A stretch of 64,000 nt of DNA from a virus. A model generated the notes under the pieces. It saw only the letters and a program-made list of their open reading frames with translations, had not been told where the DNA came from and searched no databases. Location of the stretch: the IMG/VR virus record IMGVR_UViG_3300045988_077276, positions 6,783 through 70,782 of that record; one strand, written 5' to 3'. Below, in pieces: positions 310-3,316 of the stretch. The position numbers and the translations under genes were made by a program. Position 1 is the stretch's first letter, and every line of letters begins with the position of its first letter.

Positions 310-1242
310 ATGAAATACAGAAACGGCAACGCTAGTGTGTGGCTTGATTTACAAGACGGCACACGCATTATTGAATACCCAGATAACGAACCATTGACAC
401 TTGATACGCCACTCAATATTGATATTCGTGTATCTACACAATGTCCATACGGTTATAATTCTATTACTAAGAAGTCTACTTGTGCATTTTGTCACGAGTC
501 TGCATTGGTTGATGGTCAAGAATGTCATTATGGCGTTCTGCAAAAAGTGCTGATGGACGCAAAATTACCACGTGGGACAGAAATCGCCCTTGGGGTGAAT
601 CAGATAACAGACAATCTCTTACAGTTCGTCAAGAATTTATGGAAACTTGGATTGGTTGTCAATATTACAATGAACGAGCGGTATATCTTGCAATATGGCG
701 ACACACGGCTTAAAGAGATGATGCCATATGTATATGGTCTTGGTATCTCTTATCGTTCACTATATGGATGTTTATCGCTACCAGATTGGATTGCAGAATA
801 TCCACATACGGTTATCCATGTGATTAATGGCATTGATGATTTTGACGATGTAAAAGAACTGGGTGTAAAATACCGTAAGTTATTAATCTTGGGCGAAAAA
901 GACTTCGGTTTTAACCGTGGAAAGGTTGATTTAAACACTCCACAACATAAACAATGGAAGTCGAATGTAATGCAATTGACGGAAATCTTTGACATTGTAT
1001 CCTTTGATAACTTGGGGTTGCAGCAATTAGAAATCCGTGGTAAGATAACAGATGAAGAATACAAATCGTTTTACCAAGGCGAACATTCCATGTATGTCAA
1101 TGCGGTGGAACAATACTTTGCACCATCAAGCCGTACACGGAATAACATTAAACGTTTTGATGAAACCGATTTACGTTCGTATTTTCATTTTTGTGAATCA
1201 CAGGAGGTGTCGCATGATACTAAAGAGAACAGGCGTGTTTGA
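310..1242 (+). CDS. hypothetical protein with CX12CX2C cysteine motif (possible atypical radical-SAM-like enzyme; function unproven)
   Basis: 310-aa ORF with GGAGAA upstream. Contains IDIRVSTQCPYGYNSITKKSTCAFCHES, followed by alternating beta/alpha-like segments. No canonical CX3CX2C. Confidence 0.5.
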   Translation: MKYRNGNASVWLDLQDGTRIIEYPDNEPLTLDTPLNIDIRVSTQCPYGYNSITKKSTCAFCHESALVDGQECHYGVLQKVLMDAKLPRGTEIALGVNQITDNLLQFVKNLWKLGLVVNITMNERYILQYGDTRLKEMMPYVYGLGISYRSLYGCLSLPDWIAEYPHTVIHVINGIDDFDDVKELGVKYRKLLILGEKDFGFNRGKVDLNTPQHKQWKSNVMQLTEIFDIVSFDNLGLQQLEIRGKITDEEYKSFYQGEHSMYVNAVEQYFAPSSRTRNNIKRFDETDLRSYFHFCESQEVSHDTKENRRV

Positions 1243-1708
1243 AACCAACAGTTCTTCTTGTCACTCAATGGCAATCGTTGGACGATTACAAAAGAAAACG
1301 CCAAAGGATGCAACCATTACAGACATATACGGAGAACTTGGGTATACTCCAATGTTTGATAATGTTGTATGGACTGTAAAGTTTGAAGACTACCTGTGGA
1401 AAGAACAACAGTTATGCAATTCCCAAGAAAAACTGTGGTTTTTGTTGTCTTACATCTATAGTGAATATAACTTTGACTCCATATTTGTCGATGAGTTTTA
1501 CAAAAAAGTAAAGCGTTGGTTGTCTGACATTGGTATCACACTAAAAGAACCAGACTATAGTGAATACGAAGATTATGTCGATGAAGTTTTGTCACAATCT
1601 ATTTTCAAACAGGAAATGTTTCAAACACCAAAAGACTTGTATGAATATTTGTTTGATGATGATTTAATTATTGATATTCGTTCTGTCGAGGTAAACGCAG
1701 AGTACTAG
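1214..1708 (+). CDS. FETNSSS-motif protein, paralog 1 (unknown function)
   Basis: AGGAGG lies 6 nt before ATG 1214. N-terminus MILKRTGVFETNSSSCHS and C-terminal DLYEYLFDDDLIIDI are shared with the two downstream paralogs. Confidence 0.7.
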   Translation: MILKRTGVFETNSSSCHSMAIVGRLQKKTPKDATITDIYGELGYTPMFDNVVWTVKFEDYLWKEQQLCNSQEKLWFLLSYIYSEYNFDSIFVDEFYKKVKRWLSDIGITLKEPDYSEYEDYVDEVLSQSIFKQEMFQTPKDLYEYLFDDDLIIDIRSVEVNAEY

Positions 1709-1720
1709 GGAGGAACACTA

Positions 1721-2017
1721 ATGGATTCACAAAACCAACATTCCTTAGAATGTCTATTAGAATCCCCAGTTGGTATTCGTTGTGATACTGATATGATGCC
1801 GTCATGTTTAGACCGAGTTAAACATATTGTGTTATACTTTGATAGTCTTTATGCTAAGGTTCAAGATATATATATGTGTTCTAATGGTCGTTACTATATG
1901 CTAGAGTGTTACGAAGAATACAATAATAAGAAAAGACATCTTATTCGTTTTATTGAAGTAGAACATAAGATTAAAATTATAGATTATTGGGTTGACGTAA
2001 AGGGGGCAAACAAATGA
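1721..2017 (+). CDS. hypothetical protein
   Basis: 98-aa ORF with GGGAGG upstream; stop overlaps the next start (ATGA). Confidence 0.55.
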   Translation: MDSQNQHSLECLLESPVGIRCDTDMMPSCLDRVKHIVLYFDSLYAKVQDIYMCSNGRYYMLECYEEYNNKKRHLIRFIEVEHKIKIIDYWVDVKGANK

Positions 2018-2802
2018 AATTAATACGCAACGGAGTCTTTGAAACAAACTCCAGTTCTGCACACTCTTTGGCATACAAAAACACAGTATTGCGTGATTAC
2101 AGATGTCAAACAAAGGGTATTCCATATTTTTCTGACAAACGATTTTATTTAACGAAAAAGCCACATGATTATCGCCTATACAGTTTTATGCCATTATACT
2201 TTGATGAATACGGTTGGGAGTTCAACGTATTGTCTACTCCAGCATCTAAACTTAGTTATTTAATGTCGTCCGTTTACCAGTATAAAACTTGGGGTGTTGT
2301 AAAAGAAGACCCATTTTTTAAACAAGTGATACAATGGTTAGATGAACTTGGTGTCCGTGTTGATTTACCAGAAGAATACGGTGACTCTAGTGAAGTCGAT
2401 GCATATGTTGACCACCAATCTTGGGGAGTAGTTGATAAATCTATGTTCCAAACTAGGGAAGATTTGTTGACATACCTGTTTAATGACGACATCGTAATTC
2501 ATACGGAAAATGATAATTCCGACAATATGCAAAATTGGGTTGATGCACCAGACCATACAATCAATTATCAACAAGCGATGTACTGGTGTAGTTCCAAAGA
2601 TAAATGCGTAAGACGTAAATCTTGGGAAGATGGTCTATATCTAATTTACGGTCTTGTCGAAGATAAAGATGGTCAATATATCAATGTCGATTATCTATTG
2701 GTAGATGGCAATGGTAAAGTTTTATATGAACCATCCACCGCAGACAGAAATGCAAATGATTGGGAAGTTGCTATGGGGGTAAACAGATATGAAATTAATT
2801 AG
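2014..2802 (+). CDS. FETNSSS-motif protein, paralog 2, with C-terminal DUF2829-like (Tad2-like) domain
   Basis: Contains MKLIRNGVFETNSSSAHS, YVDHQSWGVV and LTYLFNDDIVIHTENDNS. The last ~75 aa (AMYWCSSKDKCVRRKSWEDGLYL...ADRNANDWEV) fit the DUF2829 pattern. Confidence 0.7.
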   Translation: MKLIRNGVFETNSSSAHSLAYKNTVLRDYRCQTKGIPYFSDKRFYLTKKPHDYRLYSFMPLYFDEYGWEFNVLSTPASKLSYLMSSVYQYKTWGVVKEDPFFKQVIQWLDELGVRVDLPEEYGDSSEVDAYVDHQSWGVVDKSMFQTREDLLTYLFNDDIVIHTENDNSDNMQNWVDAPDHTINYQQAMYWCSSKDKCVRRKSWEDGLYLIYGLVEDKDGQYINVDYLLVDGNGKVLYEPSTADRNANDWEVAMGVNRYEIN

Positions 2803-3316
2803 AAATGGTGTGTTTGAAACCAATAGTTCATCCGCACATTCTCTTGCGTATGGTACAGAATATATCTTGCGTGGCAGTCGTTGGTATCAACCAACCGAGG
2901 AACACGACTTTAGTAATCCAATGTATCGTCTTGACAAGGTACCAGATAATTACCGTGGTTATACATTCTGTGAATGGCTTGGTGAGTTCGGTTGGAATGG
3001 CAGACCATTGCGTACACCACAAGAAAAATTTTCTTATTTGTTGACACAAATGGCAGATACATCGGAAGAACTGCATGAATCAACCGAATATGAAACCATA
3101 AAAGAAATGGTTGAAGATATTGGTTGTGAAATCATCCGTTGTAATAACCAAGATGGATACGTTGACCACGAAAGTTACGGTATAGTCAAACCATCGTTAT
3201 TTAAGTCTAAAAAAGACTTGATTACGTATCTGTTTAATGATAACATCATAGTATACATTGAAAACGACAATAGCGAATACCAAGAATGGTATACTGGAGA
3301 AAAATCAAAATGGTAA
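2789..3316 (+). CDS. FETNSSS-motif protein, paralog 3 (unknown function)
   Basis: Contains MKLIRNGVFETNSSSAHS, GYVDHESYGIV and ITYLFNDNIIVYIENDNS. Overlaps the stop of paralog 2. Confidence 0.7.
   Translation: MKLIRNGVFETNSSSAHSLAYGTEYILRGSRWYQPTEEHDFSNPMYRLDKVPDNYRGYTFCEWLGEFGWNGRPLRTPQEKFSYLLTQMADTSEELHESTEYETIKEMVEDIGCEIIRCNNQDGYVDHESYGIVKPSLFKSKKDLITYLFNDNIIVYIENDNSEYQEWYTGEKSKW

Follow-up and report, generated by a model that had tools for sequence, protein, structure and literature searches.

The window analysed here, a 64,000-nucleotide (nt) stretch of IMG/VR virus record IMGVR_UViG_3300045988_077276 (positions 6,783 to 70,782 of that record), carries a widespread and undescribed phage module, in which one single-cluster radical S-adenosylmethionine (SAM) enzyme of about 300 amino acids (aa) is encoded beside one to ten tandem proteins that share an N-terminal tag of about 20 residues and vary in the bodies behind it. 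We propose, with a probability of roughly 0.4, that the enzyme recognizes or modifies the tag on diversifying phage effectors, probably in the service of counter-defence. Neither the motif string nor phage radical-SAM systems led, when searched in the literature, to any description of such a module.

Three tagged paralogs and their radical-SAM partner

In the window the module consists of the following features (the body classes are described in the next section; ORF, open reading frame):

310–1242, + strand: radical-SAM enzyme, 310 aa (phrog_16999 'Fe-S oxidoreductase', E = 2.5e-21)
1214–1708, + strand: tagged paralog 1, 164 aa, class I body without DH-x-S and NDN; 5' end overlaps the radical-SAM gene by 29 nt
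1214–1273, + strand: N-terminal tag of paralog 1, MILKRTGVFETNSSSCHSMA
1721–2017, + strand: intervening 98-aa ORF, not a member of the family; no Pfam or PHROG match
2014–2802, + strand: tagged paralog 2, 262 aa, with tag, complete class I body and C-terminal Tad2-like domain
2014–2073, + strand: N-terminal tag of paralog 2, MKLIRNGVFETNSSSAHSLA
2563–2769, + strand: Tad2-like (DUF2829) domain, residues 184–252 of paralog 2 (PF11195)
2789–3316, + strand: tagged paralog 3, 175 aa, with tag and complete class I body; overlaps paralog 2 by 14 nt
2789–2848, + strand: N-terminal tag of paralog 3, MKLIRNGVFETNSSSAHSLA

A first reading of the window from sequence alone (the sequence-only reading) had proposed three paralogous genes, and ORFs were found for all of them, each with a Shine–Dalgarno-like sequence 6–9 nt upstream. 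The three copies are true paralogs. By BLASTP, copies 2 and 3 are 41% identical (E = 1e-38), copies 1 and 2 33% (E = 1e-21) and copies 1 and 3 29% (E = 9e-14), and the similarity persists when the first 22 residues are removed (E = 3e-26, 2e-16 and 1e-8, respectively). All three open with M-x-x-[IV]-R-x-x-V-FETNSSS-x-H-S. Their N-termini had been described as nearly identical, and indeed residues 7–15 (GVFETNSSS) and H17-S18 are the same in all three. The DNA encoding the tag is only 63–68% identical between copies; as copies 2 and 3 agree in their first 21 residues, the DNA differences between them in this segment are synonymous. The tag peptide is thus held by purifying selection and does not reflect recent duplication.

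The three genes had been described as adjacent, but they are not strictly so, as an unrelated 98-aa ORF with a good ribosome-binding site of its own splits copies 1 and 2. This ORF is probably a small insertion, because it is absent from close relatives (loci L009, L010 and L015–L017) in which copies 1 and 2 abut. Similarly, the C-terminal block thought to be shared by the whole set is complete in copies 2 and 3 (YVDH[QE]S, ENDNS) but not in copy 1, which keeps YLFDDD and has DEVLS in place of DH-x-S and RSVEVNAE in place of ENDNS. Copy-1-like proteins of other phages (P0121 and P0123) also lack the body motifs and keep the tag. The metagenomic protein P0076 (172 aa) resembles copy 1 in its N-terminal half and copy 3 in its C-terminal half, which indicates recombination between tandem paralogs.

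The flanking genes are of the kinds first described: the product of 310–1242 matches phrog_16999, and 3286–4206 encodes a C5 DNA methylase. The former had been introduced as a possible radical-SAM-like gene at the edge of the cluster; its radical-SAM identity stands, but it is a near-universal partner of the family rather than a mere neighbour. We fetched 77 viral loci through the tag, built a hidden Markov model of the enzyme and searched all ORFs. With the window included, the enzyme is encoded on the same strand as the tagged genes and within ~2 kb of them in 74 of 85 viral loci, and likewise in 53 of 68 genome-assembly loci (obtained by scanning 185,579 species genomes; mostly gut metagenome-assembled genomes). 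Many of the loci without the enzyme are short or truncated contigs. For the reciprocal set we took 80 of the 515 enzyme loci confirmed in IMG/VR and fetched them through the enzyme only. Of these, 77 hold between one and six tagged ORFs, without exception on the enzyme strand (76 is the safer count, the motif match in L233 being spurious); L188, which is among the three loci without such an ORF, encodes a class I body whose tag has decayed. Each locus has a single radical-SAM gene, with up to ten tandem tagged genes at one locus (L106), and clustering of all ORFs from diverse loci yielded no third shared gene family beside the enzyme and the tagged proteins. The enzyme is a near-obligate partner of the tagged genes.

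The module is restricted to phages and prophage-like regions. Cultured Microcystis phages of the Ma-LMM01/MaMV group have a tagged gene and an enzyme gene close together, and the enzyme is also encoded by Lak megaphages. The isolate Eubacterium plexicaudatum ASF492 encodes a 243-aa tagged protein, class I and class II tagged proteins and the enzyme at locus L137 (1028–10450), which looks like a prophage and may provide a cultivable system. By eye, the neighbours at this locus include CCA-adding-enzyme-like, DHH-family phosphoesterase-like and DNA methylase-like genes.

An invariant tag on many bodies

Across 423 unique tagged proteins the tag reads M-[KR]-x-[IV]-R-x-[GNS]-[VT]-F-E-T-N-S-S-S-x-H-[SA]-[LI]. 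Numbered from its F, positions R−4, E+1, N+3, S+4, S+5 and H+8 are 100% conserved and F and T are 99% conserved, and the F lies 9–12 residues from Met in every one of the 423. The search pattern forced part of this invariance, but not that of R−4, S+6 and H+8. Behind the tag we count at least 37 body types (37 BLAST clusters), in proteins of 78–328 aa (median 170). Class I comprises 306 ORFs, including all three window copies. Class II comprises 84 ORFs (median 127 aa), whose products are very acidic and carry a C-terminal S-G-D-x-V-V-A-F-G-x-Y-G-x-D; a class II gene usually lies directly upstream of the enzyme. A Cys-rich type, many small clusters and singletons make up the other bodies. When class I was compared with class II by hhalign, 42 columns aligned (E = 2.6e-18), covering the tag and a few residues after it, and nothing else did.

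Class I bodies are seldom found without the tag, which is present on 235 of 240 unique examples; at least three of the five exceptions lie at a contig end or result from a split ORF or a broken frame. Near-invariant residues of class I are K80, D126, H127 and N159-D160-N161, and DH-x-S and [NDS]-D-N are both kept in only 125 of the 235 tagged proteins of this class. The sequence-only reading had taken the invariant residues of both regions for one active or metal site, a view that is not supported as it stands: the N-terminal motif is separable and 100% kept on unrelated bodies, and little more than half of the class I proteins retain both body motifs. The tag is a separable module, more constrained than the motifs of the bodies that carry it.

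The family is large and, as had been claimed, uncharacterized. A word-indexed search returned only nameless metagenomic Caudoviricetes proteins, and when 1.84 billion representatives were searched in full with a profile, 2373 clusters reached E ≤ 1e-3 and 485 reached E ≤ 1e-10 (50% identity, class I alone). Most members found in this way have 145–180 aa and some 300–478 aa; a plasmid or conjugative context for these longer forms was considered and rejected, tblastn against plasmids having given no match. Neither the tagged body nor the tag was matched in Pfam, NCBIfam or PADLOC, whether in the window copies or in distant members. The sole match is phrog_28997, annotated 'unknown function' (E = 1.4e-7 for copy 3, 5e-4 for copy 2 and 7.5e-3 for copy 1; up to E = 1.4e-11 for distant members).

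Profile searches against PDB sequences found nothing for the tagged proteins. AlphaFold2 (AF2) models of copy 3 (predicted local distance difference test score, pLDDT, 73) and copy 2 (142-sequence alignment, pLDDT 79) have a confident core, and Foldseek searches with both gave no match below E = 1 in the PDB (best E = 1.0–1.7). In a BFVD search of the tagged domain a homolog was the only significant match. Profile and structure searches had been proposed at the outset as a check, the sequence-only reading to be refuted by a housekeeping fold unrelated to nucleotides together with a tail that escaped profile detection; those made here placed the family in no housekeeping fold, and they detected the Tad2-like tail of paralog 2. 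Residues 1–14 are modelled at a pLDDT of 30–50 although they form the best-conserved segment.

The Tad2-like domain, the enzyme and their genomic setting

The DUF2829 tail seen from the sequence in the middle paralog is borne out by PF11195 (Tad2-like; E = 1.5e-7, 32.3 bits, gathering cut-off 25). The match covers residues 184–252 and profile positions 2–72 of 73, which puts the C-terminal 70 residues of paralog 2 over the Pfam cut-off, and PF11195 is precomputed on most of the orthologous 251–263-aa fusions, dozens in all. Phages use Tad2 as a sponge for the signals of Thoeris, CBASS and Pycsar. The published Tad2 proteins, of ~90 aa, stand alone and form homotetramers that bind gcADPR, His-ADPR, cyclic nucleotides or N7-cADPR, whereas here the domain ends a 262-aa protein, behind a tagged body of 180 aa. 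The Tad2 fold comprises an N-terminal helix, an antiparallel five-strand sheet and two short loop helices (bioRxiv 10.1101/2023.05.01.538930). The predicted order of the tail, helix, sheet and short helices, would agree with this topology by a low-confidence AF2 model (helices 185–195, 242–246 and 249–255; strands 199–201, 208–216 and 222–231; pLDDT only 57–74).

Structural and sequence comparison with solved Tad2 gave less. A Foldseek search of the AF2 model against the PDB returned no Tad2 entry, and BFVD gave weak structural matches to Tad2-like proteins (E 0.3–0.7, probability 0.5–0.75, TM(target) 0.50–0.54). Among PDB sequences, solved Tad2 proteins were matched neither by the single tail nor by a tail profile; searching phages by tblastn, and looking for homologs of the tail profile, yielded only fragments of the same fusion, and no solved or stand-alone Tad2 for alignment. 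The tails carry an invariant R-K-S-W and Y-x-P-[ST]-x-x-D...D-W, and the ligand contacts of SPO1 Tad2 include W25, N26, W73 and D79. Going by spacing alone, in unaligned sequences, R-K-S-W may correspond to W25 and Y-x-P-[ST]-x-x-D...D-W to W73/S76/D79 of Tad2, N26 not being conserved.

The fusion was found in one of 71 diverse tagged proteins scanned against Pfam, as the sole meaningful domain there. It is limited to one subclade and occurs in the ~70-kb phages to which the window belongs and in a group of ~200-kb phages. Nucleotide-type ligands had been suggested, speculatively, for the family as a whole with this fusion as the sole basis, and that basis is confined to a single subclade.

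Two metagenomic proteins show other arrangements of the C-terminal region. P0283 is a deletion chimera in which the Tad2-like tail (...DWEV) is joined to the C-terminal end of a DUF6275 protein (...YWEVTYNGDKDEYYVD...), copy 3 and the methyltransferase having been lost with the deleted stretch (compare window positions 2563–2802 and 4106–4504). P0180 (478 aa) is a long class I protein whose C-terminal domain matches phrog_625, of unknown function (E = 7e-28), and represents a second kind of C-terminal fusion besides the Tad2-like one.

The enzyme of the window has the cluster motif C45-x12-C58-x2-C61. Most homologs have C-x3-C-x2-C-H-E, and a conserved 9-residue insertion in the window's clade gives C-x12-C-x2-C. 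In a 24-sequence alignment the three cluster Cys are the only invariant Cys; other motifs are an N-terminal Y-x-N-G-N...D-G-T, E-L-A-I-G-G-G-N-P-L and further motifs towards the C-terminus. PF04055 (Radical_SAM) is matched by homologs and not by the window protein itself, which is 30% identical (E = 2e-24) to a 298-aa PF04055 protein of an unrelated, rIIB-carrying phage; the gene for that protein follows a tagged family member with a 4-nt overlap. By its cluster motif and core, the product of 310–1242 belongs to the radical-SAM superfamily.

Weak matches limited to the radical-SAM core link the enzyme to the W-cofactor maturase, HxsC, ScmE/F, WgkB, PqqE and SkfB and, in the PDB, to SuiB (5v1q), with further weak matches to MoaA, viperin, NrdG and the lipid synthase Tes. 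These neighbours are mostly peptide or protein maturases. The HxsC model was weakly matched by 10 of 24 enzyme homologs (best E = 1.2e-5), and a best score of 22 bits against a cut-off of 267.9 places them outside the HxsC equivalog. As all matches are weak and confined to the core, we regard the enzyme as a family of its own, whose substrate cannot be read from homology.

Six over-long enzyme ORFs were considered as possible Rosetta-stone fusions. None joins the enzyme to a tagged protein; they reflect an intein insertion, HNH-like N-terminal extensions or over-extended ORF calls. The enzyme homolog at L088 (3629–5704) is interrupted by ~380 aa of intein-like sequence, which include a LAGLIDADG-type endonuclease and sit exactly inside the E-L-A | G-G-G-N-P-L motif; an insert that interrupts precisely this motif would fit a critical function for G-G-G-N-P. 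An HNH/AP2-like stretch of ~215 aa lies in frame ahead of the enzyme at L072 (8612–9260) and L121 (8981–9630), and in the ~200-kb phages L001–L003 an RRXRR+HNH gene (~4700–5950) stands between the enzyme and the tagged genes. Homing elements frequently invade the module locus. At L204 (2966–5894), one of the few loci where the enzyme homolog has no tagged gene nearby, a SAM-synthetase-like gene (388 aa) lies two genes upstream of the homolog.

The module region of the window is a dense same-strand gene string, in which ends overlap or abut and ribosome-binding sites are good. It continues into the following genes:

3286–4206, + strand: C5 DNA methyltransferase, in the same gene string (PF00145, E = 1.6e-65)
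4106–4504: DUF6275 protein
4491–5648: DnaB-like helicase
6727–7069, + strand: four tRNA genes (Met-CAT, Ser-GCT, Asn-GTT, Ser-TGA)

From its start context, the methyltransferase likely begins at the ATG at 3310. The window also encodes a large terminase, a portal, a 1656-aa tape-measure protein, a J-like tail protein and a DNA polymerase, and is most of one tailed-phage genome. Megablast against cultured phages matched the tRNA genes only and identified no close cultured relative; the tRNA cluster is the only part of the first 8 kb with such a match. At ~28000–34000 the G+C content falls to 0.28–0.31, compared with ~0.38 elsewhere, and long ORFs are few; this stretch may be a foreign or non-coding island. 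In L001–L003, two genes beside the module are not conserved elsewhere: a polynucleotide kinase-phosphatase/RNA ligase fusion (7343–9607; AAA_33 + Metallophos + RNA_lig_T4_1) and a PF20691 'TAGT' gene (1505–2866).

A proposed enzyme–client relationship and its alternatives

We favour a reading in which the tagged proteins are clients of the enzyme. The enzyme would recognize the tag as a maturase of ribosomally synthesized and post-translationally modified peptides (RiPPs) recognizes a leader, and would install a radical-mediated modification in or beside it that is needed for client activity. The bodies would diversify as effectors against host targets, most likely host immunity, and in this phage one body would have gained a Tad2-like domain, a fold that elsewhere soaks up immune signalling nucleotides. 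Tag recognition, covalent modification and its chemistry, and the counter-defence role are steps that we infer by comparison. The low pLDDT of residues 1–14, despite their conservation, is characteristic of motifs that depend on a partner and would support tag binding. Phage and prophage restriction, tandem expansion, fast turnover of the bodies, neighbouring early/replication and methyltransferase genes, invasion by homing elements and the Tad2-like fusion together suggest a role in host takeover or counter-defence, and an anti-defence role of the family is plausible on such comparative grounds.

A more specific proposal, to which we give less credence and which we regard as doubtful, is that the module represents a virus-borne form of leader-guided maturation: a modification of unknown kind in the invariant F-E-T-N-S-S-S-x-H tag would serve at least 37 types of whole-protein effector directed against host immunity, with the Tad2-like fusion as the first to have a recognizable target class. 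The enzyme–client reading itself is proposed because one enzyme is found with many tandem clients that have an invariant short N-terminus and free-running bodies, as in the leader-guided maturation of RiPPs. Well-known RiPP-type systems of comparable layout are SuiB/streptide, SkfB and PqqE, and in the prochlorosins a single enzyme acts on many precursors through a common leader. The likeness lies in a radical-SAM gene beside tandem genes with a conserved N-terminus and variable downstream sequence, and RiPP maturases are among the best, though weak, matches of the enzyme.

A precedent for a radical-SAM-matured protein effector in phage–host conflict is HXS, in which HxsA is matured by HxsB/HxsC (PMC13128918). 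There too a folded effector takes part in the conflict between phage and bacterium, and there are His- and Ser-rich motifs on both sides; in the present module maturation is a proposal. HXS differs in being bacterial and defensive and in having two radical-SAM enzymes and HxsD, as opposed to one enzyme here. HxsA has five H-x-S repeats and a peptidoglycan-binding domain, whereas the tag is a single N-terminal S-S-S-x-H-S.

A further comparison is with the anaerobic sulfatase-maturating enzyme (anSME), a single radical-SAM maturase that serves many paralogous proteins by way of a short motif near the N-terminus, which is also part of the active site. Because the target motif of that maturase belongs to the active site of the client, the sulfatase analogy would reconcile the views of the tag as a recognition element and as a catalytic one. 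An actual sulfatase/anSME system was nevertheless rejected: the sulfatase motif C/S-x-P-x-R is absent from the tagged proteins, whose bodies are too small for, and unlike, the alkaline-phosphatase-like fold of sulfatases, and anSME has SPASM clusters and is larger than the enzyme described here. The kind of system that we propose, a radical-SAM enzyme with leader-bearing clients, is already known, and there is a real chance that the module is something further away.

Several points weigh against an enzyme–client relationship, support for which is comparative throughout. Most peptide-modifying radical-SAM enzymes have an RRE/PqqD-like domain or SPASM/twitch; this one has neither by Pfam and NCBIfam, and the 24 aligned sequences have no extra invariant Cys. 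In further contrast to RiPP systems, the clients are whole, folded proteins of 78–328 aa and not short peptides, with a conserved segment of only ~20 residues that begins at Met; no protease or exporter is conserved near the module in the clustered neighbourhoods, and the module resides in phages and prophage-like regions. AF2 with a deeper alignment models residues 15–21 as a strand of the body (pLDDT ~70), so that the tag may be structural in part. The class I residues K80, D126, H127 and N159-D160-N161 would fit a catalytic site that includes the tag. Finally, MoaA and viperin are matched about as weakly as the maturases, so that a small-molecule substrate is possible.

Some of these points lead to an alternative that we rate as unlikely, namely that the tagged proteins are small enzymes in which the tag, K80, D-H-x-S and N-D-N form a metal or catalytic site for a nucleotide-type ligand, while the radical-SAM enzyme, as their partner in a pathway, would act on that small molecule or nucleic acid and not on the protein. 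The near-invariant polar residues of class I bodies and the packing of residues 15–21 into the domain are what such a site would predict, and both the enzyme's weak resemblance to the nucleotide-acting MoaA and viperin and the fusion of one member to a domain like the nucleotide-signal-binding Tad2 point the same way. Yet the tag is unchanged on otherwise unrelated bodies, and 20 residues alone cannot rebuild an active site; nearly half of class I, copy 1 included, has lost DH-x-S or NDN and kept the tag. One to ten paralogs per enzyme would also be unusual for a metabolic pathway, the supporting fusion is confined to one of 71 diverse members, and Foldseek found no hydrolase fold in the PDB.

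We put a smaller chance on the tagged proteins being interchangeable adaptors, whose tag docks the enzyme without being modified while the bodies bring targets, among them perhaps an immune signal brought by the Tad2-like domain. The linkage, tag invariance and body diversity fit this alternative as they fit the enzyme–client reading, and a conserved, hairpin-like N-terminal segment of ~35 residues in the enzyme (Y-x-N-G-N...D-G-T), ahead of the cluster motif, could pair with a tag strand. A docking peptide, however, rarely needs nine fully invariant polar residues, and a tag rich in Ser, Thr, Asn and His is more like a reaction site; natural fusions of enzyme and tagged protein are also missing from the six over-long enzyme ORFs.

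A role of the tag as a sorting signal seems to us very improbable. The model would be T4, whose capsid-targeting sequence ends in [LI]-x-E and whose polymorphic, tandem internal proteins share only a short N-terminus; tagged proteins would likewise be cut after Glu (V-F-E|T), packed and injected, and the enzyme would be linked for some other reason. A short conserved N-terminus on polymorphic, tandem and fast-evolving proteins does recall T4, as does V-F-E at a fixed distance from Met. The T4 system, however, has no linked radical-SAM enzyme, and its tag is shorter and defined by the protease site, whereas here the invariance runs well past Glu (T-N-S-S-S-x-H). A sorting signal would explain neither this nor the near-obligate reciprocal linkage to the enzyme, nor conservation across head types as different as those of Lak megaphages (from the enzyme), Microcystis phages and this long-tailed phage.

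An ordinary local triplication with a chance Tad2-like match is hardly credible: tandem duplications are common in phage accessory regions, and the tail has no match to solved Tad2 and weak structural matches, but 2373 representative clusters (E ≤ 1e-3) with a conserved partner gene contradict it, and the PF11195 match exceeds the curated cut-off and recurs, precomputed, in dozens of orthologous fusions. Three further candidates were set aside. Glycyl-radical activation was rejected as there is no conserved Gly motif, and a thymidine-hypermodification pathway as a TAGT gene accompanies the module in no group but the 200-kb clade and is not conserved. By eye the tag fits the bacterial N-glycosylation sequon E-x-N-x-S, which leaves the enzyme unexplained.

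If the enzyme–client reading is correct, a large unannotated phage system extends from gut phages to Lak megaphages (known there from the enzyme alone) and Microcystis phages, and it would combine new radical-SAM protein chemistry with a modular set of likely counter-defence effectors. For enzymologists it would supply a new enzyme–substrate pair defined by a 20-residue recognition tag. For phage biologists, Met followed by 8–11 residues and FETNSSSxH beside the enzyme would be a sequence handle on hundreds of candidate effectors, and the Tad2-like sponge domain would be placed in a new context. Even without modification, the strict linkage of the two genes provides a solid rule for annotation, one that is missing from current databases.

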